From: a virus | Taxonomy: Duplodnaviria; Caudoviricetes | Length of the DNA: 30,410 bases | Virus record (IMG/VR): IMGVR_UViG_3300023116_000213 | Coordinates: 1 to 30,410 of that record | Reading direction: 5' to 3' (one strand) | In this document: positions 1-17,306 of the stretch, one piece after another | Numbering within the stretch: the first letter of the stretch is position 1 | How the letters are laid out: every line of letters starts with the position of its first letter | Program-made: the position numbers and the translations under genes | The notes under the pieces: model-generated | Databases searched by the model: none | Told to the model about the DNA's origin: nothing | The model's input: the letters and a program-made list of their open reading frames with translations, nothing else

Positions 1-77
1 TCAAGGAAGGAAATCTGTAAAGTTCTCCAATAATTTCTCCCGATAAAAAACCAATATAATACATGAAGATAGGTTAC

Positions 78-152
78 GCTGACTTTTTAGCCTATCAAGA
101 TAGTACGAAGTCTCCAACTTGACAGGCTCGGACAAGTCCTTAAAAAGTCAGC
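78..152. repeat. Inverted repeat / hairpin GCTGACTTTTTA...TAAAAAGTCAGC
   Basis: 12-bp perfect arms at 78-89 and 141-152. Confidence 0.8.
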
Positions 153-183
153 ATCATTTCTTAGACTTATTTGGTTTATCTAG

Positions 184-212
184 TTGACATGGAGTCTATA
201 AAGTTATAAAGT
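184..212 (+). promoter_or_regulatory. sigma70-type early promoter P1
   Basis: TTGACA (184-189), 17-bp spacer, TAAAGT (207-212); predicted start ~219. Confidence 0.7.
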
Positions 213-250
213 AATATACATGTATTATATTAATTTTTTAAGGAGAAATT

Positions 251-469
251 ATGAGTTTAAATAATACTTTACAGATTGACTTCCACTGTGAAGACAATTC
301 CTGTGTATCACTATTCTCTTATGAAAGTGCTTTAGCTTTCATGAAAGAGTCTTACTACATGATTAGGTCTATTTGGTCTAATTCATCTAATGTCGAAGAA
401 AAGCTTTTTGAAGCTTATTTCGAAATTCAAGATAACTATTTAATTGAGGAGGAATTATACAATGAGTAA
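251..469 (+). CDS. Hypothetical early protein (acidic, 72 aa)
   Basis: AGGAGA RBS, downstream of P1. Confidence 0.75.
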   Translation: MSLNNTLQIDFHCEDNSCVSLFSYESALAFMKESYYMIRSIWSNSSNVEEKLFEAYFEIQDNYLIEEELYNE

Positions 470-752
470 ATTTAGTTATGAAAACCTAACCAGAAAGCAA
501 CAACTGGCTCCAGCAAGTTTCAATACCTGCAAACATGTTTCGTTGCACTTTGCGGGAGGTGTTGGATATCAACAACGAACACCGCAACAATGGAATCTTT
601 ATAGAAACTTGCGTTCAACTTTGTATAATTTGACAAAGTCGAAGAAAAAGTCCGAAGTATTTACAATGGAAAAAGCAAACGCTTTGCTCCAAGTAAACAA
701 GCTTCCAAGCATTTACAAAAAAGCAATGGAGGACTTTTTGGAAGGTAAATAA
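462..752 (+). CDS. Hypothetical early protein (basic)
   Basis: ATG 462 preferred over the TTG at 444 because of the GAGGAGG RBS; followed by a terminator. Confidence 0.75.
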   Translation: MSKFSYENLTRKQQLAPASFNTCKHVSLHFAGGVGYQQRTPQQWNLYRNLRSTLYNLTKSKKKSEVFTMEKANALLQVNKLPSIYKKAMEDFLEGK

Positions 753-766
753 TTCCCGACCTTCCC

Positions 767-795
767 AGCCCTTGGAGAAATCCGAGGGCTTTTTT
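767..795 (+). terminator. Rho-independent terminator
   Basis: AGCCCTTGGA-GAAA-TCCGAGGGCT followed by a T-tract. Confidence 0.85.
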
Positions 796-1094
796 ATGCC
801 CTTAAAAAATTTCGCCTCGCCTCTTCGAGGCTCGGTCTTAAAAGGTCTTTTGTTTCACAAAAGGCTCCTATCTTATGAACCGAAGAGGTGAGAGCTAACC
901 AACACAAACCATAAAAAATACTGCGAGGATTTCTCCTATACAGTATATTTATATAAAGACTATAAAACTGTATAGTATTCTAAAGGCAGGAAAATTCTTT
1001 GGCGAAGTGTTGATTGCGACTATAAGAATTTTTATATTATTCTTTTAAAGGTATTAGGAGGAGTTGTTCTAAAGCCCGTTAAAGAACTTTAAAG

Positions 1095-1123
1095 AGTGTA
1101 GCATATTTTTTACTAACTTGCAA
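1095..1123 (-). promoter_or_regulatory. Leftward sigma70-type promoter
   Basis: Minus strand TTGCAA, 17 bp, TACACT, with TGn extended -10; no sizeable ORF downstream. Confidence 0.5.
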
Positions 1124-1176
1124 GATTTGTAACACACTCCCTCGCAACACCCCATATTGATAAGTATATATAAGGC

Positions 1177-1205
1177 TTGACGCTTCGGCAAAGCTGTGCC
1201 ACAAT
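1177..1205 (+). promoter_or_regulatory. sigma70-type early promoter P2
   Basis: TTGACG, 17 bp, CACAAT, with TG extension. Confidence 0.6.
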
Positions 1206-1248
1206 GGTTCCAGAAATCGGAATTGTCCCATTTCAAAACGGAGAAATT

Positions 1249-1437
1249 ATGTTATCTTTTGAATCTTATCAAGGAGCTATTATCCACCTTAAAAAGGAAG
1301 GTTATAAGTTCTTATCAGACTTCTCTAACAGAGGAGATGTTCATAAACATTACTATAAAGGGCAGAGAGTTGTTCTTTTAAATGGGAGCTTTGTTCCCTA
1401 TGAAGGTTATAAATACTATTTACAAGAAGTTAAGTAA
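1249..1437 (+). CDS. Hypothetical early protein (62 aa)
   Basis: GGAGAAATT-ATG at 1240-1251; the TTG at 1177 is the -35 box of P2. Confidence 0.7.
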   Translation: MLSFESYQGAIIHLKKEGYKFLSDFSNRGDVHKHYYKGQRVVLLNGSFVPYEGYKYYLQEVK

Positions 1438-1485
1438 ATACATGTATTATAAAAGAAAAACCACATAGTAAATATTATATAGGTA

Positions 1486-1514
1486 TTGACACCGAAACCA
1501 AGCTGTGTCATACT
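1486..1514 (+). promoter_or_regulatory. sigma70-type early promoter P3
   Basis: TTGACA, 17 bp, CATACT, with TG extension; leader hairpin TCGGC/GCCGA follows. Confidence 0.7.
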
Positions 1515-1558
1515 GTTATCAATTCGGCAATGAAGCCGAGTTTAATTAGGAGAAATTT

Positions 1559-1858
1559 ATGTTTGATAGAAACATTCAAAAATCTAGCTCTACATATGAA
1601 GAGGCTAGAAAAATCGAAGATAAAATTCAGAATGCTGGATTTAAAAGAAGAGAGCAAATTAATCAGTTAATTGATGAAATGCTTACTGAATATAAAGAGT
1701 TGCACAAAGAAACTACAGAGTTTCTACACACTAGAATAAATCGTTGGGATACTCTAGATGTTGTTGTTCGACTATCTCAATACGGAGTAGGGTTGCATAA
1801 ACTTGGAACAGCTTACTCAAATGGTATTAACTCAATTGCTTGTAATAAGCCAGACTAA
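1559..1858 (+). CDS. Hypothetical early protein (helical, 99 aa)
   Basis: AGGAGA RBS; first gene of the P3 operon. Confidence 0.75.
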   Translation: MFDRNIQKSSSTYEEARKIEDKIQNAGFKRREQINQLIDEMLTEYKELHKETTEFLHTRINRWDTLDVVVRLSQYGVGLHKLGTAYSNGINSIACNKPD

Positions 1859-1873
1859 AATATTGGAGGGAAT

Positions 1874-2026
1874 ATGAAATATCATTTTAACATTACGATT
1901 TCAACAGACGATACTGTAGAAGCTACTACAGAAACAGAAGCCATAAGCCAAGTTAAAGCAAACTTTATGCAAGACTTTAACATTCCTTTGTGTGATTCAG
2001 AAATAACTTTATTGGAGGTAGAATGA
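1874..2026 (+). CDS. Small hypothetical protein (50 aa, MKYHFNITISTDD...LLEVE), not in the ORF track
   Basis: GGAGGG RBS; stop overlaps the next ATG (ATGA). Confidence 0.7.
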   Translation: MKYHFNITISTDDTVEATTETEAISQVKANFMQDFNIPLCDSEITLLEVE

Positions 2027-2271
2027 AAACAGTTAGTATAACAGGAGATAAAACAGTCGTTACTTACAAGGGTCATACTGTACATTGTTACGGTAAGCTC
2101 AAAGATACTTCAACAATTATCTATGCTTTATCCAATGGTTGTGAAGGTCATACAGATAACTATGATTATGACAACAATGAGCCTTATACAGATTGGGAAG
2201 CCTTTGTTAAAGATTGGGTAGAACTTGAGGGTGTCGATGATTTTAATGTAATACAATTGGAGGTAGACTAA
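2023..2271 (+). CDS. Hypothetical early protein (acidic)
   Basis: GGAGG RBS, translational coupling. Confidence 0.75.
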   Translation: MKTVSITGDKTVVTYKGHTVHCYGKLKDTSTIIYALSNGCEGHTDNYDYDNNEPYTDWEAFVKDWVELEGVDDFNVIQLEVD

Positions 2272-2468
2272 TGATTGTAGAATTATGTGATAGTAAAAAG
2301 TTCACTGCTTTTAGAACAGATTTAGATAAGGTTTTACAAAAGCATTATCCAAATACTGATTATGAATGGGAATATTACGATGAAGGTTATAGCGATGCTT
2401 CATCAACAGATACTAATGCTAAGTGGCGATTAGTAAGAATCTATATGGACTTAGAGGAGGAATCATGA
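2271..2468 (+). CDS. Hypothetical early protein
   Basis: GGAGG RBS, TAATG overlap. Confidence 0.75.
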   Translation: MIVELCDSKKFTAFRTDLDKVLQKHYPNTDYEWEYYDEGYSDASSTDTNAKWRLVRIYMDLEEES

Positions 2469-2632
2469 AAGACCAAGACGTACTTAAAGAGTACTTTTTA
2501 AATCAACACTTTACCCCTACGGATAAACAACGCAGGGCATTGAATGACTACTTTATGACCAACATGCTAAAGGTTATGGAGGGTAACTATAAGAAAGATG
2601 AAGCAGGAAATATCTTTAAGGAGGAGGAATGA
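2465..2632 (+). CDS. Hypothetical early protein (55 aa)
   Basis: GAGGAGG RBS before ATG 2465, ATGA overlap. Confidence 0.7.
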   Translation: MKDQDVLKEYFLNQHFTPTDKQRRALNDYFMTNMLKVMEGNYKKDEAGNIFKEEE

Positions 2633-2820
2633 CTGAGCTAGAAAAAGTAAATTACTTACAAAATATGTCGCAGTTCTTTGGAGACTTTATAGGTATTGCC
2701 ATGGTGGTATTGGTTGTGCTAATCTTTACGCTGTGGATATTTGCTTGGTGGGCTACATCAAGTACTTTCATAGGTTGTCAAAAGACTAAGGAGAAAAACA
2801 ATGAGAGGTCAGATAGTTAA
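2629..2820 (+). CDS. Small single-pass membrane protein
   Basis: Hydrophobic segment FIGIAMVVLVVLIFTLWIFAWWA with a basic C-terminal tail; AGGAGG RBS. Confidence 0.7.
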   Translation: MTELEKVNYLQNMSQFFGDFIGIAMVVLVVLIFTLWIFAWWATSSTFIGCQKTKEKNNERSDS

Positions 2821-2995
2821 TTGGGAATATGATAATTCACTTACAGAATATGAGAACTTTCGAAGATGGTTCGATTGTGCTAATGAAGAACGCAGAAACT
2901 TTAAAGAACCCGAACTTAGCCTACATGAAGCCAAGGTTAAGTACGAGGAATATATGGGTATTAAACTTAATTTTGAGGAGGGATTTAACGAATGA
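2801..2995 (+). CDS. Hypothetical early protein
   Basis: AGGAGA RBS. Confidence 0.7.
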   Translation: MRGQIVNWEYDNSLTEYENFRRWFDCANEERRNFKEPELSLHEAKVKYEEYMGIKLNFEEGFNE

Positions 2996-3219
2996 GTATT
3001 GATACAATTACAACAGAAACATGGCAGAGTTTATTTGGAGAGCAACTTGCTTCTATGAATGAACTGTCTGCAAAGATGACTGCTCAACAATTTGAAGCAG
3101 TTGTTGAAGAAGCTTTAGAAATTGCTTTCATGGGAGACTATGACGAAGAAAGAGGTTTCAAAGATTATGAAATAACACAAGCTCTGAACGAAGCTATCGT
3201 TAGTTTTATTAGAGTTTAA
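2992..3219 (+). CDS. Hypothetical acidic early protein
   Basis: GAGGAGG RBS, ATGA overlap. Confidence 0.75.
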   Translation: MSIDTITTETWQSLFGEQLASMNELSAKMTAQQFEAVVEEALEIAFMGDYDEERGFKDYEITQALNEAIVSFIRV

Positions 3220-3223
3220 AAGT

Positions 3224-3292
3224 TTGTGGCTAGGGTAGGTCGTAAGACCAACAATATAATACATAAATTTCTCCCTTAAGCCTTAGCCACAA
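3224..3292 (+). ncRNA. Stem-loop RNA displaying an anti-RBS loop (candidate antisense sRNA)
   Basis: Stem TTGTGGCTAGGG/CCTTAGCCACAA; inner GGTC-GTAA-GACC hairpin; loop 3253-3274 is complementary to 220-231 and 1549-1562. Confidence 0.55.
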
Positions 3293-3297
3293 TTTAA

Positions 3298-3620
3298 CAT
3301 AAGTGTAAGACGAGCTTACTGTAAAATCCAGAAGTCTGAACTGTTTTGCAGGGTGACGAAGTAGGTCGTAAGATAAAGTTTAGGATGAGTGCTAGAACCC
3401 GTCGCCTATAACACTATGTAGTCGCAACAGGGACTATAAAACCCTAATGGTTAAAGGTGCTGTTGGAGGAGCTTGATAAGTGCTTCGTAACCAAAAACTT
3501 ATCGTTACTTTAGTTTAAATCCTAGAGTTAGTTTGGATTAGCTATCCTTACTGTATCACTAGGCTTACGGACTGCTAGGTAGAGTAGTCACGTTCTTGGA
3601 GGAAAGCACCTTGAACATTT
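3298..3620 (+). ncRNA. Large multi-stem structured RNA of unknown family
   Basis: ORF-free intergenic region with about ten helices, several needing G-U pairs on the + strand; long-range pairing 3454-3461/3605-3612. Confidence 0.55.
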
Positions 3621-3642
3621 CATTACTTGTAGGAGGGTAATT

Positions 3643-4344
3643 ATGTATAAATTATTAGGAGTTGGTAGTAACTATAAAACTGCAAAGTCAGATAAGATAT
3701 CTGAATATCTCACGGCTATCATGTATATGATGCCACTCAATACTAGAATATGTCCGTATCAAGACATTGCTAAGTGCAAGTCTGCTTGTTTGAATACAGC
3801 GGGACGAGGTGCATTCAGTAATGTACAGAAAGCTAGACTTAGAAAGACCGAATGGTTTCTCAATGACGAGCCTAGTTTCATGGAGCAGTTGTTTCAAGAC
3901 ATCACTAAGTTTGTTCGTCATTGTACTAAGCACGGCAGAAAACCTGCTGTCCGTCTTAATGGTACTTCAGACATTCAATGGGAGTACAAAAAGTATCTTG
4001 GTCAAACTCTGTTCGAACACTTTCCAGAGGTGCAGTTCTATGACTACACTAAGATACCAACACGGAACATAAGTAACATTCCAAACTATCAGCTAACTTG
4101 GAGCTACTCAGAAGCCAATCTCAAGTATGCTGACTTCTTTAGAGAAGCATTAGACAAGGGTATGAATGTGGCGGTGGTATTCAATCACGACTTACCCAAA
4201 GAATTTAAAGGTGTCCCAGTCATTGACGGTGACTTGCATGACTTGCGATTCCTTGACCAGACAAATTCAGTGGTCGGTCTTCGAGCCAAAGGCTCAGCTA
4301 AGAAGGACGATTCTGGCTTTGTAATTAATTTAATCAACTTATAG
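3643..4344 (+). CDS. Gp88-like phage protein (CxxxxxxxCxxxC, possibly Fe-S / radical-SAM-like)
   Basis: Motifs CP...CKSACLNTAGRG, VRLNGTSD, FYDYTK, DGDLHDLRFLD, GLRAKG are typical of the GP88 family. Confidence 0.75.
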   Translation: MYKLLGVGSNYKTAKSDKISEYLTAIMYMMPLNTRICPYQDIAKCKSACLNTAGRGAFSNVQKARLRKTEWFLNDEPSFMEQLFQDITKFVRHCTKHGRKPAVRLNGTSDIQWEYKKYLGQTLFEHFPEVQFYDYTKIPTRNISNIPNYQLTWSYSEANLKYADFFREALDKGMNVAVVFNHDLPKEFKGVPVIDGDLHDLRFLDQTNSVVGLRAKGSAKKDDSGFVINLINL

Positions 4345-4352
4345 GAGGTATT

Positions 4353-4574
4353 ATGACTAAATTAATAATTGAAAAAAATATTCCAATCCCGGCTTATTCA
4401 AGAAGCCAAAAGTGGAAAGCCATTACATCGAGAATGGAAAGAGGCGATTCTGTTTTGTTAGAAAATAGAACTCAAGCTTGTGGCTTAATAAACTCAGCAA
4501 AGTTTATACCCTTTGACATGAAGTTTACTACAAGAAAAACCCCTGAAGGTATTAGAGTTTGGAGGATTCTATAA
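4353..4574 (+). CDS. Small basic phage protein, putative DNA-binding
   Basis: IEKNIPIP...GDSV...GIRVWR pattern is common in phage small proteins. Confidence 0.65.
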   Translation: MTKLIIEKNIPIPAYSRSQKWKAITSRMERGDSVLLENRTQACGLINSAKFIPFDMKFTTRKTPEGIRVWRIL

Positions 4575-4909
4575 TGAAAAATTTATTACGCAAATGGCTT
4601 GGTCTTGTTGACCTTACTAAAGCTGTCAACACTCTTAGAGTACAGATTTTGGACGCTACCAAATCTACTGACGACTTGAAAGACGACATCATTAATGACT
4701 TGGAGTATGAGATAGACCGTAAGGTTGAAGATACTGTTGATGACCAAATCTCAAACTACTCAGATAGGTTTGATGACCTTGACAGTATACGATATGACTT
4801 TGATGACTTCAAAGCTGATTTTGAACAAAAGATAGACTCATTAAAAGAAGACGTTGAGTTCCTATCTATTCTCAATAGACTAGAAGCTTTGGAATCTAAA
4901 GTAAAATAA
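4574..4909 (+). CDS. Acidic helical early protein
   Basis: GGAGG RBS, TAATG overlap; ~29 D/E in 111 aa. Confidence 0.7.
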   Translation: MKNLLRKWLGLVDLTKAVNTLRVQILDATKSTDDLKDDIINDLEYEIDRKVEDTVDDQISNYSDRFDDLDSIRYDFDDFKADFEQKIDSLKEDVEFLSILNRLEALESKVK

Positions 4910-4913
4910 GAGT

Positions 4914-5018
4914 TTTGGCTCAGCAATAATCGGAGTTATCCTCAAATTATTTCGATATCATTGATAGGTTTCAATGAGGGCAACGGGGTAGCCTTGAATA
5001 CCCCACCGCTGAGCCAGA
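4914..5018 (+). ncRNA. Four-way-junction (cloverleaf-like, non-tRNA) structured RNA
   Basis: Closing stem 4914-4924/5008-5018 encloses hairpins 4925-4951, 4958-4977 and 4985-5004. Confidence 0.6.
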
Positions 5019-5033
5019 TTTATTGGAGGTAAT

Positions 5034-5255
5034 ATGATAAATAAAACAGAACTAATGAACTTTATCAGAAACCAAATACATGATGATTTGTTTGTCGAAC
5101 TTTCAGAGGAATGGGAGAACGAAGAAACTTATTATTATAATGCTAATTGGGTTAAAAATATCAGAGAAGCAGAAGATATAACAGAACTAAAAGAAACTTT
5201 GATTACAATAGTCAGAGGTCTTAGTAAATATTTACAGGAAACAAAATGGAACTAA
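5034..5255 (+). CDS. Hypothetical protein
   Basis: GGAGG RBS. Confidence 0.75.
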   Translation: MINKTELMNFIRNQIHDDLFVELSEEWENEETYYYNANWVKNIREAEDITELKETLITIVRGLSKYLQETKWN

Positions 5256-5494
5256 CTAAGAACGAATATGCGATTGCTTACGCAGTCTTTAGCACCAACG
5301 ATATTGATAGTGTCATACTATTTTTTCGTTATCAGAAACCAGATGAAGAAGCTATTAGTAGTAGACTGGTCTTGGTGACTGATGTTAAATGCGACCACCT
5401 GATTGGTACTGAAATAAGTACTGGTCTGAAAAAACGTTTTAACCTAGAAAATATCGTAGACGATTCTTGTAAAGTTTGGACTGAAGTATGCTAG
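5246..5494 (+). CDS. Stand-alone WYL-like domain protein
   Basis: Pattern hhFxYxK..E.SxR.V....L.G......RFxLxxI resembles the WYL (Sm/SH3-like) fold. Confidence 0.5.
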   Translation: MELTKNEYAIAYAVFSTNDIDSVILFFRYQKPDEEAISSRLVLVTDVKCDHLIGTEISTGLKKRFNLENIVDDSCKVWTEVC

Positions 5495-5503
5495 AATAAT
5501 AGC

Positions 5504-5794
5504 ATGACCAAGTTTGAATCTAAAAAGAAAAAACCAGATTGGGATAGTATTTCCACATGGGAAGATGCCAACAATGCTCTTGTTATGTGGGTACTAACTC
5601 CCAACTGTATTCGAGAACGTATGACAGAAACCGGTAAATCTTTTAAGGTTTCTAATGAAATGATATACGAATTTTGTTATCACTCTCGTAGAGGGTGGGA
5701 TATGGAGGCATTCAAAAATGCTTTCAAAGATTTTGTTATTGAGAATCTGGAAGAAGAGATAAAGTTTCAAGAACCTAGGAATTTTATAACATGA
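5504..5794 (+). CDS. Hypothetical protein
   Basis: ORF in operon; weak RBS. Confidence 0.65.
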   Translation: MTKFESKKKKPDWDSISTWEDANNALVMWVLTPNCIRERMTETGKSFKVSNEMIYEFCYHSRRGWDMEAFKNAFKDFVIENLEEEIKFQEPRNFIT

Positions 5795-6078
5795 ATAATA
5801 AAAAAATTAAAAAATTAAAAAGTAAAGTTAAACATATACAACTAGGATGGTTTCAAAGTTTATTACCAGAAGGTGAAAAAGAAAAAGCTAATCTGGACAA
5901 TATAAGTTCTTTGATGCCGGACCAGACCCATGTGTTTGCGAATGGTAGAATAAACTTATCCTTCATGACTGATAAATTTGTTATGAAGTGGTTAAAAAAA
6001 TGTCCTGAGATAGAGACATATGAGGAGCTAATGCATTATGCAGAACATAAGACATTACCTAGTAAAGGTAGTGATTGA
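5791..6078 (+). CDS. Hypothetical protein
   Basis: ATGA overlap with the upstream gene. Confidence 0.7.
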   Translation: MNNKKIKKLKSKVKHIQLGWFQSLLPEGEKEKANLDNISSLMPDQTHVFANGRINLSFMTDKFVMKWLKKCPEIETYEELMHYAEHKTLPSKGSD

Positions 6079-6289
6079 CGGAGAAGAAGATGAACTAAAA
6101 AGTTTTGGTGAATCAGAAATGGAGATACTCGATAACATGGTAGAGATACCAGCTGTTGACGAGGTCCTTGAAATTAAAGACTTGGAAACAGGTAAGAAGT
6201 GGATAGGAGGAGGCTCTCTTGAAAAGTTAAGAGAGATTAAAAGTGAAATAAATAAATTCTTTAGCACATCTAAAAAGGAGGTACATTGA
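6038..6289 (+). CDS. Hypothetical protein
   Basis: ORF in operon. Confidence 0.65.
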   Translation: MQNIRHYLVKVVIDGEEDELKSFGESEMEILDNMVEIPAVDEVLEIKDLETGKKWIGGGSLEKLREIKSEINKFFSTSKKEVH

Positions 6290-6543
6290 TGGACTATGAT
6301 ATTGGATTTGTCTCAAAGTTTAGAGACCCACATCCCGAAGCACCCGTAGAAGTTTGCTATTGTCTAACCAAAGACCAAGCAAAATTATTCAAGGATATGA
6401 TTGACAATATCTTTGACTACGAAGATAAAATTAATTGGCGAGTAGATATTACTAACAACGGTAATCTGTTGCATTTCTTTGATGAAGATATGTTTCAACA
6501 GATGCACTTGCATTCTATTTTAGAGGAGGTTATGGATAGATGA
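6289..6543 (+). CDS. Hypothetical protein
   Basis: AGGAGG RBS; TGATG overlap (alternative TTG at 6286). Confidence 0.7.
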   Translation: MDYDIGFVSKFRDPHPEAPVEVCYCLTKDQAKLFKDMIDNIFDYEDKINWRVDITNNGNLLHFFDEDMFQQMHLHSILEEVMDR

Positions 6544-7046
6544 ACATATTTTATTTTTACGATTGTCCACGCAAATGTGCTGAGGCTCAGCCTGATAAGA
6601 TGTTAGTCAAGATGCCTTTAGAAACTGCACAAATGTTATGTACAGCTCACCGTGTTTTAGATGGTGACGAGTATGCTGATATGGCAGGTCTCTATAAGAC
6701 TGCTTACAAGAATCATCCTTGTACTATCTGGGCTAGAGAAACATCCGGTAACTATGCATGGCTCTATCAACACTTCGATGCTTTGTGTTGGGAATACTTG
6801 CACCGTTATGGTCGCACTCATGCTTCGTATCAAAAGTTATCAGTAGCATTGACTAAGGTGCCTGACAACATAGCACAAGCTGAGAAGACACCTGTTGCTC
6901 TGGCTATGCCGGACCAATACAAAGAACCCGATGACCCTATACTGTCTTATAGACAATACTGTATAGCGGAAAAGACATATGCACAATGGAACAAAAGTAG
7001 ACCGAGACCACCTTGGTGGACTGCACCAAATGCTTGGACTGCTTGA
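6540..7046 (+). CDS. Pyrimidine-dimer DNA glycosylase / T4 endonuclease V-like family protein
   Basis: MNIF...DK..VKMPLETAQML...NHPCTIW.R...NY.WL...EY..RYG..H signature. Confidence 0.75.
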   Translation: MNIFYFYDCPRKCAEAQPDKMLVKMPLETAQMLCTAHRVLDGDEYADMAGLYKTAYKNHPCTIWARETSGNYAWLYQHFDALCWEYLHRYGRTHASYQKLSVALTKVPDNIAQAEKTPVALAMPDQYKEPDDPILSYRQYCIAEKTYAQWNKSRPRPPWWTAPNAWTA

Positions 7047-7071
7047 CATGAATTATGAATTGGATTAATAT
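7043..7071 (+). promoter_or_regulatory. sigma70-type promoter for the replication operon
   Basis: TTGACA, 17 bp, TAATAT. Confidence 0.65.
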
Positions 7072-7079
7072 TTACAGTA

Positions 7080-7232
7080 TGAAGATAGAAGGCAACAATC
7101 TAAGAGCATTGAGTGATGTTTGCCCTCGTCTATCTCCATTACTCTCACTCAATCCAATCACATGGTCCCCTCGTGGGTGGGGAACTCTTAAACCCACACA
7201 ACTATTAACTACTTTTAATGGAGGATATATCT
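7080..7232 (+). promoter_or_regulatory. Structured 5' leader of ssb with an H-type pseudoknot
   Basis: Hairpin 7083-7135; pseudoknot S1 7166-7170/7179-7183, S2 7173-7178/7192-7197; A/U-rich tract up to the SD. Confidence 0.6.
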
Positions 7233-7643
7233 ATGATAGTTGAAGGTACTGCGTATTGGGCTTCGATAAGAACCCCTAATACAACTTATGAGCCTATGTA
7301 CACAATCAACTTAGTTGTTGATGAAGAAACTGCAAAAGATTTTGCGGCTCGTGGACATGGCATTCGTGAAATGGAAGAAGGTCCTGCTGTCGTTATCAAG
7401 AGGAAAGTAAATGGTCCTAATGGTATGGTCAGAAAGGCACCTAGACTCCTAGACCAAAATAAGAATGACGTTGATGTTCTTATTGGAAATGGTTCCACAG
7501 TTAGAGTTCAGTATTCTGAATATGATTGGGAATGGAAAGGAAAAGCTGGTAAGGGTTTAGACTTACAAGCTGTACAAATTGTGGATTTAGTTCCTTATAA
7601 AACCGGTGATGGTGACGAGCTGTTAGACGGTGAGGAGTTTTAA
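7233..7643 (+). CDS. ssb: Single-stranded DNA-binding protein (T7 gp2.5 / DUF2815-like)
   Basis: G.AYWA...PNT..., IGNGS.V.V, GLDLQAVQIVDL and an acidic tail ending in aromatic F (DGEEF); lies upstream of primase. Confidence 0.8.
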   Translation: MIVEGTAYWASIRTPNTTYEPMYTINLVVDEETAKDFAARGHGIREMEEGPAVVIKRKVNGPNGMVRKAPRLLDQNKNDVDVLIGNGSTVRVQYSEYDWEWKGKAGKGLDLQAVQIVDLVPYKTGDGDELLDGEEF

Positions 7644-7645
7644 TT

Positions 7646-7882
7646 ATGCAAATTAATTTTGACGGTAAGGTGTATGAAACTGAAAAGCTTACTGACCCAA
7701 AAGTTAGACAACAAGTTCAAGCTTATGTAAGTCAGATTGCTTTTAACAATCAGTTTCAAATCTCACTACAAAAATCCAATGACAAACTACAAGAGGAACT
7801 TAGACCTCTACTAGTTGAAGAGGCATTGGTTGAGCAAGAGGAAACTGCAGAAGCAGAATCCAACAGCAAAAAATCTAAGTAG
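7646..7882 (+). CDS. Hypothetical coiled-coil protein
   Basis: INFDGKVY N-terminus followed by a coiled coil. Confidence 0.7.
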   Translation: MQINFDGKVYETEKLTDPKVRQQVQAYVSQIAFNNQFQISLQKSNDKLQEELRPLLVEEALVEQEETAEAESNSKKSK

Positions 7883-7900
7883 TTTTTTCATATTATTTAA

Positions 7901-7925
7901 CGGGGGTCTTCGGACCCCTGCTTTT
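7901..7925 (+). terminator. cUUCGg hairpin / weak terminator before primase
   Basis: GGGGTC-TTCG-GACCCC then CTTTT, directly before the primase RBS. Confidence 0.65.
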
Positions 7926-7936
7926 GGAGGGCAAAA

Positions 7937-9613
7937 ATGGAAACCAAATCAACATGGGTAGAATTTCACGTACCCTGTAACTTATGTAAATCAAGCGATG
8001 CAGTCTCAGTAAATGAAGACGGCTCAGCTAAATGTTTTAGTTGCGGAGCTTTCTTTCCGGACTACAAAACACCTGAGGGTATTACAAAACCCAAAGAATC
8101 AAACACCTTTTTATCAACATATAAAGGTGATTACTATGACCTAATAGACCGCGGTATTGATAAGACCACTGCAAAGAGATTTGGAGTACGTGCTATCACT
8201 GACCAGAACGGAGACATCCAAGAACATATTTATCCTTATTACAATGGGGATGAAATTGTTGGAACTAAGTCTCGTTATGTCAGAGATAAACGTTTCTCTT
8301 TCGGAGGGACCTTTGATAATACCGGTCTATTTGGTGAGCAACTCTTCCGTAATAAAGGCGGAAAGTATCTCACTATTACTGAAGGTGAGTGCGATGCTAT
8401 GGCGGCTTATCAAATGTTTAATGGTAAGTATCCCATCGTCTCACTAAAACGTGGAGCTTCTGGTGCTGTTAAAGATATCAGAGAATCCATAGAATTTGTC
8501 GAGTCTTTTGACCAAGTTATTCTTTGCTTTGACAATGATAAACAAGGGAAGGAGGCGGCTAAGAATGTCGCAAGGATTATCAAGCCCGGGAAAGTTAAAA
8601 TCATGGGTTTGCCTAATGGCTATAAGGATGCCAATGACATGCTTAAACAGGGTAAGTTCAGTGAATTTACTCAAGCATTCTGGGATTCAAGACAATATAC
8701 ACCTTCAGGAATTATCGAGCTATCCAGTAAAAAGAAAGACTGGCTACATCGAGAGGTAAAACCAAGTATCCCCTATCCTTGGGAAGGCTTAAACAATAAG
8801 TTGTACGGGCTGAGGAAAGGGGAACTGGTCACCTTTACAGGTGGTACAGGTCTTGGTAAGTCTAGTGTTACTAGAGAACTTGAACACTGGATAATTAAAA
8901 ACACTACAGACAACGTTGGTATCATTGCCCTTGAAGAAAATTGGCAACGAACAGCTGATGGTATTGTGTCTATTGAAGCTAACGATAGAATATATCTTAA
9001 TGAAAAAAGAGATAAATATTCGCCAGACCAACTCGAATCTTTGTTTGACAAAGTCATTGAGGAGGGAAGAGTATTTATCCATGCTCACTTAGGAGCAACT
9101 GACATTGACGATATCTTTGCTAAGCTTCGATACATCATCATTGGCTGTGAGTGTGAATGGGTAATTGTTGACCACTTACATATGTTAGTTAATGTTCTTA
9201 CTGAAGGTGATGAACGTAGAGGTATTGATACCTTGATGAATCGTTTACGTAGTCTGGTCGAAGAGACCGGAGTGGGTATGTTATTAGTCTCACACTTAAG
9301 ACGTGCCTCTGGCGACAAAGGTCACGAGCAAGGTGTGGAAGTCTCCTTGTCCCACTTAAAAGGTTCACAAGGTATCGCTCAACTCTCTGATTGTGTTATC
9401 GCTTTAGAAAGAAACCAACAAGCGGAAGACCCTGTGGTCGCTAACACAACTAAGTTACGCGTTTTAAAATCCAGATACACAGGAGATACTGGACTTGCTT
9501 GTAATTTATTGTATGATAATGATACAGGTCGATTACATGAAAAAGAATTAGAAGATGAAATTGATGAATTTCTCATGACAAGAAAAGATTATGAACAACA
9601 ACTCACTCTCTAA
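7937..9613 (+). CDS. T7 gp4-like DNA primase-helicase
   Basis: N-terminal Zn finger (CxxC...CxxC), TOPRIM (ITEGECDA, FDND), Walker A GGTGLGKS, VDHLH, KSRYTG. Confidence 0.95.
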   Translation: METKSTWVEFHVPCNLCKSSDAVSVNEDGSAKCFSCGAFFPDYKTPEGITKPKESNTFLSTYKGDYYDLIDRGIDKTTAKRFGVRAITDQNGDIQEHIYPYYNGDEIVGTKSRYVRDKRFSFGGTFDNTGLFGEQLFRNKGGKYLTITEGECDAMAAYQMFNGKYPIVSLKRGASGAVKDIRESIEFVESFDQVILCFDNDKQGKEAAKNVARIIKPGKVKIMGLPNGYKDANDMLKQGKFSEFTQAFWDSRQYTPSGIIELSSKKKDWLHREVKPSIPYPWEGLNNKLYGLRKGELVTFTGGTGLGKSSVTRELEHWIIKNTTDNVGIIALEENWQRTADGIVSIEANDRIYLNEKRDKYSPDQLESLFDKVIEEGRVFIHAHLGATDIDDIFAKLRYIIIGCECEWVIVDHLHMLVNVLTEGDERRGIDTLMNRLRSLVEETGVGMLLVSHLRRASGDKGHEQGVEVSLSHLKGSQGIAQLSDCVIALERNQQAEDPVVANTTKLRVLKSRYTGDTGLACNLLYDNDTGRLHEKELEDEIDEFLMTRKDYEQQLTL

Positions 9614-11321
9614 TGTTGTCTTTGATATTGAAGCAAATGGTCTAAAACCTGACACAGTTTGGTGTCTCGTAGCCAAGGAAGTTGATGGCACTATACATCG
9701 ATTCGGTCCTAACGAAATCGATAAGGGCATAACCCTCCTTGTAAATAGTAATACCTTAATAGGTCACAACATTCTTGGTTACGACATACCTGTTTTAGAA
9801 AAACTTTACAATGTTAAATTCAACAACAAGATAATAGACACACTAGTACTATCTCGATTATTTAATCCGGTACAAGAAAACGGACACAGTCTAAAAACCT
9901 GGGGTTACAGATTAGGAATGCCTAAGATGGAACAGCCTGAGTTTGAAAGCTTTACTCCAGAAATGTTGGATTACTGTAGTCGGGATGTACAACTTAATGA
10001 AGCAGTCTATAAAGCTTTATTAAAATCAGGTCGCGGATTCAGTACAGAAAGTATTGAACTGGAACACGAGGTCGCTAAGATTCTCAAGACTCAAGAAGAA
10101 CATGGTTTCTTATTTGATGAACAATCTGCAACAATGTTGGTTGCTACTCTTAAAGAAAAAATGTTTACCGCTGAGAAAGAAGTTCACAAGGTTTTCAAAC
10201 CTAGACTTCTTAGAGATAAATTAGTTGTACCAAAGCTTAAGAAGGACGGTACTTTATCTAGGGTTGGACTTACACCGCAGGAATTTGATGACTGCATGGA
10301 CCGTCCTTTTTATCGTAAGAAACTACAAGCATTCAATCTAGGTTCGCGTAAACAAATCGGTGAATACTTAGTAGACTTTGGGTGGAAGCCTAAGAAGTTT
10401 ACTCCAACAGGTCAGCCGATTGTGGACGAGAATATCCTATCTAAGATTGATGATATCCCTCAGGCTAAACTTATAGCCGATTACCTTTTATACCAGAAGA
10501 GAATTGCTCAGGTCGATTCATGGCTTGAAGCAATTGAAGAAGACGGTAGAGTTCATGGACTTGTTATTCCAAATGGAACTATTACAGGTCGTATGACTCA
10601 CCGTAAACCCAACATGGCTCAAGTACCTAATATGGGTTCTTTGTATGGTAAAGAATGTCGTAGCTGTTGGATAGTTCCAGAAGGATTTAATTTGCTTGGT
10701 GTGGATGCCTCCGGCTTAGAGCTACGTATGTTAGCTCACTACATGAAAGATGAAGATTATAAAAATGAAATCTTACACGGTGATATTCATACTGCAAATC
10801 AAAACATGGCAGGTCTTGAAACTAGAGACCAAGCAAAAACTTTTATATATGCCTTCGTTTATGGAGCAGGTGATGCCAAGATAGGTCAAATAGTTGGAGG
10901 CAACAAAGCCTCTGGAAAGGCTTTAAAAGATAGATTCTTATCAAACCTCCCGGCATTGAAAAGCTTACGTGAGAGAGTGAATAAGGCAGCCTCACGTGGG
11001 TTTTTGAAGGGGATTGATGGACGTAAAATCTATGTCAGGTCCGAACATGCCGCATTGAATACTCTTCTTCAAGGAGGAGGAGCCATTGTGATGAAGAAGG
11101 GTTTGACATTACTACAAGAAAAATTTAACTTATTAAATGTGGATGCAAAATTTGTAGGAAATATTCATGATGAATGGCAGATTGAAGTGAAGTCTTGCCA
11201 AGCTTCTAAGGCTGGACATCTTGCAGTTTCTGCTATCCAAGAAGCTGGAAAACATTTTGATATGTTTTGTCCTCTGGATGGTGAATACAAGATAGGAGAG
11301 AATTGGAGTGAGACTCATTAA
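9591..11321 (+). CDS. polA: Family A (T7 gp5-like) DNA polymerase with 3'-5' exonuclease
   Basis: DIEANG (ExoI), GHNILGYD (ExoII), YC..DV (ExoIII), DASGLELR (motif A), AKTFIYAFVYG (motif B), HDE (motif C). Confidence 0.95.
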   Translation: MNNNSLSNVVFDIEANGLKPDTVWCLVAKEVDGTIHRFGPNEIDKGITLLVNSNTLIGHNILGYDIPVLEKLYNVKFNNKIIDTLVLSRLFNPVQENGHSLKTWGYRLGMPKMEQPEFESFTPEMLDYCSRDVQLNEAVYKALLKSGRGFSTESIELEHEVAKILKTQEEHGFLFDEQSATMLVATLKEKMFTAEKEVHKVFKPRLLRDKLVVPKLKKDGTLSRVGLTPQEFDDCMDRPFYRKKLQAFNLGSRKQIGEYLVDFGWKPKKFTPTGQPIVDENILSKIDDIPQAKLIADYLLYQKRIAQVDSWLEAIEEDGRVHGLVIPNGTITGRMTHRKPNMAQVPNMGSLYGKECRSCWIVPEGFNLLGVDASGLELRMLAHYMKDEDYKNEILHGDIHTANQNMAGLETRDQAKTFIYAFVYGAGDAKIGQIVGGNKASGKALKDRFLSNLPALKSLRERVNKAASRGFLKGIDGRKIYVRSEHAALNTLLQGGGAIVMKKGLTLLQEKFNLLNVDAKFVGNIHDEWQIEVKSCQASKAGHLAVSAIQEAGKHFDMFCPLDGEYKIGENWSETH

Positions 11322-11559
11322 CTGTTATTGTAATTCTCGTGAATTGGATGATTTACTTGCAACAACAAATGAATTTTCCGAACCTATTGCAACTTATGTT
11401 GATATAGACGAAGTCATGGGATGGAAAACTGTAGTTACGGATTACCAGATTTATGGTATGGAAACAACTTACTACTCTCCCGACAAATCCACTACAGAAT
11501 TTATTTGTTTAAGTTGTTTATTGGAATGGAGGAAAGATGAAACCTACCAAGAAAGATAG
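11308..11559 (+). CDS. Small Cys-containing hypothetical protein
   Basis: GTG start overlapping the pol stop, AGGAG RBS, CYC...CLSC. Confidence 0.6.
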   Translation: MRLINCYCNSRELDDLLATTNEFSEPIATYVDIDEVMGWKTVVTDYQIYGMETTYYSPDKSTTEFICLSCLLEWRKDETYQER

Positions 11560-11962
11560 AAAAAAGTTTGACCTAGATTTACAGTATGGTCAAATTAAAG
11601 AAGACGAAATTGCTGAAATGTTTGCTAATTGCAAGATTGAAGTTAAATCAGAAAGAGGTATGTGGATGAATACCGGTAACATTGCTGTTGAATATGAAAG
11701 CTATGGAAAACCTTCTGGCATTAAAGCTACAGAGGCAGACTATTGGTTTCACAATTTATGTGTCAACGGTAAAATATATTGTACGTTGGTTTTCCCAACA
11801 GATAATCTTAAGAAGATTGTAGAAAAACTAGATACATTTAAAACAGTAAGTGGCGGTGACCACAATGCTAGTAAGATGTATTTAGTCGCATTATCCAAGC
11901 TGTTTTCTGCTGATGTTCTTAAACAATTTGAGGAGCTAGAAAATGGCAAAGAAGAAACTTGA
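11537..11962 (+). CDS. PD-(D/E)XK-like nuclease family protein
   Basis: G...E, IEVKS, TGNIAVE, SGI..T.ADYW. Confidence 0.6.
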   Translation: MKPTKKDRKKFDLDLQYGQIKEDEIAEMFANCKIEVKSERGMWMNTGNIAVEYESYGKPSGIKATEADYWFHNLCVNGKIYCTLVFPTDNLKKIVEKLDTFKTVSGGDHNASKMYLVALSKLFSADVLKQFEELENGKEET

Positions 11963-12815
11963 AACAGTTGTTGATGATATTTACCACGTAGTTGGCAAAC
12001 TAGGTAACGGTGAAGAACTTAACATAACAGAAAAACAATTTAAATCTTTTGGTAAGTTTATGGAACATGCCTTAAGAGATTGGGCTACTCCAAGAGAAGC
12101 TCAAAGACCTACACTGCGAATGTCTAACATTGGTAGACCAACAAGACAGCTATGGTTTGATATGAACTCAGAACGTACACCTAGCGGTCTTCCTGCACCG
12201 ACCATGATTAAATTTCTTTATGGTCATATCTTAGAACGTTTAGTGCTTTTTCTAGTAGAAATAGCCGGACATAAAGTCACAGACGAGCAAAAAGAAATCA
12301 CTGTTGGTGGTATTACTGGACACATGGACTGTAAGATTGATGGTCAAGTAGTAGATATTAAATCCGCCTCTGGATTTGGCTTTCAAAAATTTAGAAATGG
12401 AACATTAGCTGAGCAAGATAGCTTTGGTTACATGTCTCAACTTGCTGGATACGAAGCTGCTGAAGGTTTAGACTCTGGTGGTTTTCTTGTTATCAACAAA
12501 GAAACTGGAGAATTATGCCTGTTTCTTCCTGAAGACCTTGACAAACCCAATATAGAGACTAAAATTAAAAAGGTTAAGTCTGCAATTAAACGCACTACTC
12601 CTCCTGAGTTTTGTTACGAGCCTATCGCAGACGGAGCTTCTGGAAATTTCAAATTACCTAGAGAGTGTACATACTGCAATCACAAGTTTGAGTGTCACAA
12701 AGATGCGAATGATGGAAAGGGATTGCGGGTATTTGAATATGCAAGAGGTCCTGTTTACTTAACAAAGGTAGAACGAGTACCTAATGTGGTAGAAATTACA
12801 AAGGAGTCTAAATGA
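11943..12815 (+). CDS. PD-(D/E)XK exonuclease (Cas4/RecB-like)
   Basis: GHMDCKIDGQVVDIKS, QLAGY, C-terminal CxxCxxxxxC. Confidence 0.8.
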   Translation: MAKKKLETVVDDIYHVVGKLGNGEELNITEKQFKSFGKFMEHALRDWATPREAQRPTLRMSNIGRPTRQLWFDMNSERTPSGLPAPTMIKFLYGHILERLVLFLVEIAGHKVTDEQKEITVGGITGHMDCKIDGQVVDIKSASGFGFQKFRNGTLAEQDSFGYMSQLAGYEAAEGLDSGGFLVINKETGELCLFLPEDLDKPNIETKIKKVKSAIKRTTPPEFCYEPIADGASGNFKLPRECTYCNHKFECHKDANDGKGLRVFEYARGPVYLTKVERVPNVVEITKESK

Positions 12816-13096
12816 AATATAAATTTAATGAAGATAAATTAGTTGAAGAACTACAACGGTATATATACGACACTTATGGTCAACATTATGCTACAGACAA
12901 ATATCAAGCTACAGATATTATTATTGATTCTGGACATGGTACGGGATTCTGTATAGGGAACATTATGAAATATGCCAAACGTTATGGTAATAAAGAAGGA
13001 AGAAATAGAAAAGACTTACTAAAAATATTACATTATGGAATTATTATGTTACACATTCATGATGAAACAGATAAATTTTTTAAGGCAGGAGAATAA
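12812..13096 (+). CDS. DUF3310 / T7 gp1.7-like putative nucleotide kinase
   Basis: HY...GFCIGNIMKYAKRYGNK...DLLKILHY. Confidence 0.65.
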   Translation: MKYKFNEDKLVEELQRYIYDTYGQHYATDKYQATDIIIDSGHGTGFCIGNIMKYAKRYGNKEGRNRKDLLKILHYGIIMLHIHDETDKFFKAGE

Positions 13097-16874: not shown

Positions 16875-17306
16875 TTAAGAAACCTTAATTTTCACAGGTT
16901 TTTTCTCTTCAGGTACTATTTTTTCTAAAACTATAGAAAGTAGACCATTCTTTAGAGAAGCTTTTTTAACTACAATGTCTTCTGCTAGATTAAAACTTCT
17001 AGTAAAAGAACGTTGAGCTAAACCTTGATGAATTAAATCATTCTTCTTTTCATCTTTCTTTTCGTAAGAAATGGTTAGTACTCTTTCTTGTAACTCAATA
17101 TCCACATCACTAGCAGATAATCCTGCCATTGCCATTTCAATTGTGTACAACTCACCATCCTGATATAAATTATAAGGTGGGTATGAGTTATTAGATTGCC
17201 TATCTAAGTTTTGTAATTTAGATAGTTTATTAAATAGAGAATCAAACCCGATTAAGGATTTGCTAAATGATGGATGTGTTAAATCCAAAAGATATTTGCT
17301 TGTCAT
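16875..17306 (-). CDS. hsp20: Small heat-shock protein (IbpA/Hsp20)
   Basis: IGFD, YPPYNL, IEMAMAG, HQGLAQRSFTRSF, A.LKNGLLSI.LE..VPEEKKP..I. Confidence 0.95.
   Translation of the reverse strand: MTSKYLLDLTHPSFSKSLIGFDSLFNKLSKLQNLDRQSNNSYPPYNLYQDGELYTIEMAMAGLSASDVDIELQERVLTISYEKKDEKKNDLIHQGLAQRSFTRSFNLAEDIVVKKASLKNGLLSIVLEKIVPEEKKPVKIKVS

Follow-up and report, generated by a model that had tools for sequence, protein, structure and literature searches.

The early gene run of a tailed-phage (Caudoviricetes) genome fragment contains one conspicuous stretch without open reading frames, which raises the question of what that stretch encodes. The fragment is a 30.4-kb virus record (IMG/VR IMGVR_UViG_3300023116_000213), estimated to be 59% complete; all 30,410 nucleotides were analysed and are referred to here as the window. 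The window encodes a T7-like ssb, primase-helicase and DNA polymerase, as well as a Cas4-like exonuclease and ribonucleotide reductase. The top match of its polymerase among cultured phages is Pelagibacter phage HTVC103P (52%), which on sequence grounds is too distant for naming a host. An Hsp20/IbpA-like gene (16875-17306, minus strand) is common among marine contigs and gave no host lead.

A preliminary description of the locus had called the ORF-free stretch (3220-3642, 423 nt) the only large gap in its operon. Within the run of genes from 1559 to 4909 no other gap exceeds 40 nt, and the stretch lies among small early ORFs without family matches. A larger gap of 806 nt (752-1559) exists upstream of this run. 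It contains terminator-like hairpins (767-790 and 844-866) and promoter-like sites (1177-1205 and 1486-1514), is not matched by profiles of modules A, B and C described below, and may be a genome-end or control region.

The preliminary description read positions 3298-3620 as one ~330-nt, two-domain RNA. Sequence comparison instead resolves four separately inherited cassettes in that range and another such cassette immediately upstream; we call them S, A, B, C and hairpin c and conclude that five independent cassettes, each predicted to fold, make up the gap as an array. The features of the locus, all on the plus strand, are as follows.

1486-1514, plus: putative sigma-70-like promoter (10/12 matches, extended -10), the nearest strong candidate upstream of the array's gene run
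2992-3219, plus: 75-aa ORF with no assigned function, its stop codon abutting the array
3221-3295, plus: cassette S, a long hairpin with a 13-bp terminal stem and a variable AU-rich interior (folding against shuffles)
3298-3418, plus: module A, predicted pseudoknotted junction RNA (122 distinct cores)
3330-3363, plus: optional insert in the variable loop of A (4-62 nt in relatives)
3420-3504, plus: module B, predicted double pseudoknot of pistol-like topology (covariation, 35 sequences)
3517-3589, plus: module C (12 sequences; 18-row alignment)
3592-3616, plus: hairpin c, a strongly covarying stem with a constant 9-nt loop at 3600-3608
3631-3636, plus: Shine-Dalgarno-like site of the next gene (sequence)
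3643-4344, plus: GP88-family gene (PF17338, phrog_1617), a neighbour only (family matches)

No terminator-like sites are listed between the promoter at 1486-1514 and the array, and no plus-strand promoter- or terminator-like sites are listed within 3220-3642.

Structure is supported by covariation rather than folding energy

Minimum free energy (MFE) folding of the whole 336-nt stretch was no better than that of shuffled sequences (z -1.29; 12 of 100 shuffles equally good), and was rejected as proof of structure. Folded singly, A, B, C and c gave z values of -0.9 to -1.6 by the same approach, which ignores pseudoknots. Covariation among homologues is strong within A and B, pseudoknots included. 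Variable positions retain G-U and not A-C, in agreement with the earlier assignment to a plus-strand RNA. All helices listed in the preliminary description are able to form; homologues back some of them and do not back the closure of its second domain.

The locus also matches no known family, as had been supposed. Rfam 15 covariance models gave no match at the gathering score in the window and none at E<=10 in 3100-3800, and ARAGORN found no tRNA or tmRNA gene. A search of 10 loci with Rfam returned three unrelated sub-threshold matches, and a search of 14 array loci returned none.

Module A

Module A is predicted to be built from P1 (3302-3306/3411-3415), P2 (3309-3312/3400-3403), P3 (3315-3319/3368-3372) and P5 (3379-3384/3405-3410), with conserved unpaired A-rich linkers. 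P5 crosses P2, forming a pseudoknot. We parsed 122 distinct cores on fixed anchors. Within P2, 3311-3401 is paired in 122/122 cores and 3310-3402 in 120/122, each with four pair types. On a tree made without these columns, 3311-3401 needs 10 and 10 changes on its two sides and 11 jointly, and 3310-3402 needs 8 and 8 and 9 jointly; the joint counts barely exceed the per-side counts, so the changes are coupled. Four positions of P5 are paired in 42-43 of 43 cores in one of two main sub-classes, and three positions in 70/70 cores in the other; nine of the 122 cores belong to neither. The P3 register was picked by best pairing, and counts for the first pair of P3 and for P4 are out of register in part of the rows; neither is taken as proof.

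The closing helix that had been drawn for domain 1 (3298-3306/3411-3418) is P1 of A, and its pairs are conserved by eye across the table of homologues. The conserved arms, by sequence, differ from the three inner arms of that drawing: the arm at 3305-3319 is formable in just 50/122 cores, and those at 3319-3351 and 3352-3406 use the optional insert, which is missing from many homologues. In relatives, the variable loop of A holds units that elsewhere stand alone in arrays.

A 13-nt exact repeat is common to the inner hairpin of S (3235-3247) and to A (3361-3373). Other S variants do not carry it, and A may have been the source of a local copy.

Module B

Module B comprises P1 (3420-3423/3432-3435), PK1 (3425-3430/3460-3465), P2 (3448-3452/3489-3493), P3 (3468-3471/3483-3486) and PK2 (3474-3479/3499-3504), modelled on 35 copies chosen from 64 distinct ones. 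Across the five helices, 97.0% of 874 cells are paired, and helix positions slid as controls reach 31-58%. Compensatory cells number 34 against a shuffled mean of 8.6 (0/500 shuffles), a comparison that ignores relatedness and concerns helices picked after the alignment was viewed. PK1 is paired in 98.6% of cells with one-sided changes only; P2 is paired in 100%, with double changes at 3/5 pairs. We discarded an initial model containing a pair of local hairpins, whose helices were 77-79% paired, in favour of the long-range P2. Both halves of B have the form of H-type pseudoknots with an A-rich loop. Six of 119 metagenome B loci lacked the fold and were dropped, leaving 113 true B loci.

The hairpin reported at 3418-3437 is P1 of B and is supported by homologues, as are the reported arms at 3475-3503, 3521-3563 and 3570-3589. 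Two pairings that had been offered as alternatives hinting at pseudoknots or switching (3425-3430/3460-3465 and 3448-3453/3488-3493) are indeed pseudoknots; they are mutually compatible and so belong to a single fold, not a switch. Our covariation-backed models predict new, compact pseudoknot folds for A and B.

Module C, hairpin c and cassette S

Module C has an outer helix (3521-3525/3559-3563), an inner stem, a second hairpin (3570-3575/3584-3589) and a possible loop-loop pairing (3542-3545/3579-3582). Among 12 copies of C with c, double changes occur at 11/30 pairs, seven of them in c, where they affect 7/8 pairs of the stem. The hairpin stems of C covary. The outer helix and the loop-loop pairing are invariant or nearly so in the 12 sequences, without covariation support, and are modelled as plausible.

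The helix thought to close domain 2 (3446-3461/3605-3619) would join B to hairpin c, units that are found apart and in reverse order in relatives. Its AGCA sits in a loop that is unchanged in 14/14 hairpin-c-bearing copies among 18 aligned C sequences; in the other 4/18 hairpin c is swapped for another unit.

Cassette S lies outside the range considered earlier (3298-3620). Its fold is better than that of shuffled sequences (z -4.5, 0/200), its stem is retained in 13 distinct variants, and it occurs in 15 of the 118 arrays described below. The loop of S is complementary at 18/20 bases to the ribosome-binding site and start region of ORF 1559 (1549-1568). An antisense role at this start was rejected: controls in 10 genomes lacking S reach 16-19/20. 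An anti-Shine-Dalgarno-like stretch is retained in many S variants.

Arrays in other phages differ in content and order

Among 80 gp88 loci, the gap was matched piecewise only, and in a different order in locus L020. Pattern scans for the pieces led to several hundred loci. We grouped 265 IMG/VR pattern loci into 130 clusters and dropped 12 without an A, B or C motif, leaving 118 distinct arrays. These form 81 different strings built from 27 module labels, a set made by eye and incomplete, in a sample biased towards A, B and C. Module A is present in 85/118 arrays, a figure subject to this ascertainment bias. Up to seven labels occur within one array, and no unit is common to all 118. The window's own string, SABCc, is found in 0/81 strings and in 1/119 metagenome loci, a near-copy.

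Arrays that share flanks differed in content in 17/19 pairs, a ratio inflated by the prior collapse of near-identical arrays. L086 (AE) and L111 (AHB) have flanks that are 100% and 99% identical and carry different strings; L143 and L298 have flanks 100% and 99.5% identical, and C with c is exchanged for another unit. Unit order is non-random: P is first in 23/23 arrays and B is the last recognised unit in 48/51, the window being an exception in which C follows B.

Arrays are on the sense strand in the early region, upstream of ssb, primase or polymerase where those were matched. A profile search of 24 fetched records and the window found one array site per record, with two in G002; by motif labels, G003 has a second small site. 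The window has one copy each of A, B and C, and none of 119 metagenome B loci has more than one copy as tandem near-identical repeats. In GenBank phages, blastn gave no match to the window gap or to the array of L157, and local A, B and C profiles found nothing in HTVC103P 1-13000 or HTVC115P 1-11000.

Several further units and records were noted. Unit D (L078 2355-2403, L074, L039) is a long hairpin, and within its loop lies a small stem capped by 7 nt with CAU at the centre. This 7-nt loop resembles an initiator anticodon loop, and D is a candidate tRNA-loop decoy. Units E, F, G, H and I (arrays L078, L280, L139 and L180) have a common chassis of a short 5' helix starting with AGU, an A-rich linker and a pseudoknot strand; the loop of G covaries, as judged by eye, with its 3' partner. 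The two arrays of G002, AHB at 1155-1399 and AE at 52097-52209, are different and have apparently the same gene context; two population variants may have been assembled into this record. In G005 (10113-11821) stop codons of all three kinds interrupt the polymerase match in several frames, and frameshift errors in the record are the probable cause.

Arrays are independent of gp88 and of the next gene

The preliminary description tentatively linked the RNA to the Gp88-like protein. A unit lies within 200 nt upstream at only 1/76 evaluable gp88 loci, gp88 is the downstream gene in 4/106 arrays, and six records that are 91-100% complete hold arrays without a gp88 match. The genes downstream of 106 arrays belong to 36 families, and thus lack the consistent downstream family of a riboswitch or leader. 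Since arrays are independent of both gp88 and the next gene, a gene-specific cis-regulator is unlikely.

Gp88 itself has three cysteines spaced C-x7-C-x3-C, a spacing suggestive, by analogy, of a metal cluster. We found no solved structural relative of Gp88.

Units cross phage lineages and occur in RNA libraries

Module A or B is present in G006, G007, G008 and G020, which have a different terminase-portal set, and in G021, which has an HK97-type head. G020 also has no T7-like polymerase match, and its 125 nt around B are 93.6% identical to podovirus G015, while the remaining DNA common to the two is at most 69% identical. G021 and fragment G026 have only a 146-nt, two-module stretch in common (93.8%). 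From these identities we infer recent transfer of units among phages of a common host. Such cross-lineage exchange suggests that the partner belongs to the shared host and is not a phage protein.

We identified 19 RNA-library runs that contain part of window positions 2700-4400. Contigs cover the array in all four runs examined, out of 24 listed sequencing runs, although these are contigs only and DNA may be present. The longest aligned pieces listed for X5 and X8 are 3267-3575 and 3312-3596, respectively; X1 and X5 also contain a variant with C directly after A.

What the arrays may do

Sequence comparison establishes that the units are conserved separately, covary, are shuffled and exchanged between lineages, and are independent of the next gene. 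Units that are independent, traded and not tied to the next gene would behave as accessory genes under host-driven diversifying selection. Our preferred reading, held with a little less than even confidence, is that the array is a set of exchangeable non-coding accessory genes whose products act in trans as decoys, binding host proteins early in infection. Host sigma-70 RNA polymerase would transcribe the array inside the early operon, and each unit would fold into a compact, nuclease-resistant pseudoknot and outlive the surrounding mRNA. The units would then titrate host anti-phage or RNA-metabolism proteins, a different unit for each protein, and array content would turn over like the adjacent small early protein genes. 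Module A would also act as a display scaffold, with other units carried in its variable loop.

The best precedent for a phage RNA decoy is the pseudo-ToxI of phage PhiTE, an instance of RNA mimicry (PMC3475682). As outlined in the reports cited here, the type III antitoxin RNAs ToxI and CptI are short pseudoknotted units, ToxI consisting of 36-nt tandem repeats (PMC5086642; PMC3475682). In the terms of those reports, our arrays share several traits with type III antitoxins and pseudo-ToxI: they are phage-encoded rows of short non-coding units with pseudoknots, and they are gained by recombination. They differ from ToxI, one unit repeated beside a toxin locus or copied from it, in that their units are heterologous and about 25-120 nt or more in length.

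Several observations weigh against the decoy reading. No binding partner was found, and the B loci are not tandem. Exact-pattern scans, which diverged templates would escape, found no toxin gene or host antitoxin template for the units, and the A pattern gave two chance matches in 185,579 GTDB genomes. No terminator separates the array from the following gene. The high cross-lineage identity could partly reflect constraint, and different units may have different functions. The constrained order of units and the proximity of some arrays to promoter-like sites fit cis roles for some units.

These last features are the basis of an explanation that we consider possible, if unlikely: the units may act in cis on the early polycistronic mRNA, stabilising or cutting it as roadblocks or processing signals. 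A promoter-like site occurs within 110 nt of 27/108 arrays (6/600 controls), so that a quarter of the arrays begin right behind such a site, and in 34/50 arrays no more than 45 nt separate the end of B from the next start codon. Compact H-type pseudoknots with A-rich linkers would suit stabilisers, which we presume to be analogous to exoribonuclease-resistant pseudoknots (xrRNA); S, a long stem directly after a stop codon in the window, would presumably correspond to an RNase III-type site. One stabiliser would suffice, however, and this explanation does not account for 27 or more units, up to seven labels per array and exchange between identical flanks.

A doubtful reading, with a small chance of being right, is that the early transcript is cut by A, B or C acting as new self-cleaving ribozymes, B being pistol-like with a different core. 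Accounts of the pistol ribozyme (RF02679) describe P1, P2 and P3 with a 6-pair pseudoknot that connects the P1 loop to the P2-P3 junction, a two-nucleotide P3-P2 junction that is often G-U, and a core with a purine at position 32, a G33-C41 pair and the conserved general base G40 (PMC6154101; PMC6795133). The helices of module B follow one another as in pistol, from P1 through a 6-pair pseudoknot to P2 and P3. Its P3-P2 junction is likewise short; it reads G3487-U3488 in the window and G-G in most copies, its second base being pairable in some. Many unpaired residues of A and C are invariant, as those of a ribozyme might be. Unlike pistol, B has an extra 3' pseudoknot. Mapped by topology, the equivalent of purine 32 is an invariant U (3458, 35/35), that of C41 is an invariant A (3467, 35/35), and that of G40 (3466) is A in 9/113 true B loci. 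The RF02679 model gave no match at E<=10 in five records. With the model silent and three core positions different or variable, we do not file B as a pistol ribozyme. Contigs from all four RNA libraries read through the candidate site, which argues weakly against cleavage, as DNA may be present.

Signals in the nascent RNA to host RNA polymerase or ribosomes, driving early transcription and genome entry, are very unlikely. Arrays are always early and sense, and a promoter-like site precedes unit P in 20/21 cases and A in 7/39, as might be expected of put-like antitermination, an analogy that we assume, or of translation enhancers. Yet 81/108 arrays, the window's included, have no promoter-like site within 110 nt, near-identical phages differ in content and there is no universal unit.

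We regard a role as recombination anchors or selfish passengers that promote the shuffling of early genes, with RNA structure secondary, as highly improbable for these units. Shuffling of this kind is reported to be mediated in T4-type phages by PeSL cassettes, dispersed repeats of a promoter plus a terminator that number about 50 per genome (PMC2839356). The arrays are like PeSLs, as reported there, in being non-coding, situated in hypervariable early regions and tied to modular shuffling, and their units do move between phages. They differ in consisting of dissimilar pseudoknots, mostly without a promoter of their own, at one or two sites per record rather than dozens of dispersed repeats. 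No repeat common to the units was seen, and the covariation of these intricate pseudoknots implies that the fold is under selection.

A single ~330-nt RNA or cis-regulator acting with Gp88 is scarcely credible and largely refuted: gp88 is adjacent here and in 4/106 arrays, as against the 0/81 strings reading SABCc, the C-before-B order of relatives and the 1/76 gp88 loci.

Relation to other phage RNAs

The crAss-like phage phi14:2 has abundant and persistent early intergenic RNAs (bioRxiv 10.1101/2020.03.07.982082), a second precedent for the decoy reading. As described there, these long non-coding RNAs are, like the arrays, early, sense and intergenic; they come from a different phage group, no structure or modularity is described for them in that account, and the likeness is one of description, not of compared sequences. 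Fremin et al. (2023; PMC10690425) reported candidate structured RNAs from IMG/VR, using the same database and the same covariation logic. The words 'tandem' and 'array' are absent from the main text of that study; single modules may be among its candidates, a comparison that concerns the main text only. We found no description of heterologous RNA cassette arrays in the open-access library searched.

The arrays described here are variable, are built from at least 27 hand-labelled unit types, are traded between lineages and occur in abundant ocean phages. They suggest a layer of non-coding accessory genes that is missed by gene callers and by Rfam. A and B are short enough for direct synthesis and for tests of cleavage, nuclease resistance and ligand or protein binding. 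The phage RNA counter-defences that we know of are single cases, such as pseudo-ToxI. We tentatively suggest, as something less probable than its contrary, that marine phages have in common a library of folded RNA effectors, dozens in number and traded horizontally, in which each member would be directed as a decoy or aptamer at a single immune protein or signal of the host, with A as a natural display scaffold and with some units perhaps representing new ribozyme classes. If true, this library would be an RNA counterpart of anti-defence protein islands.
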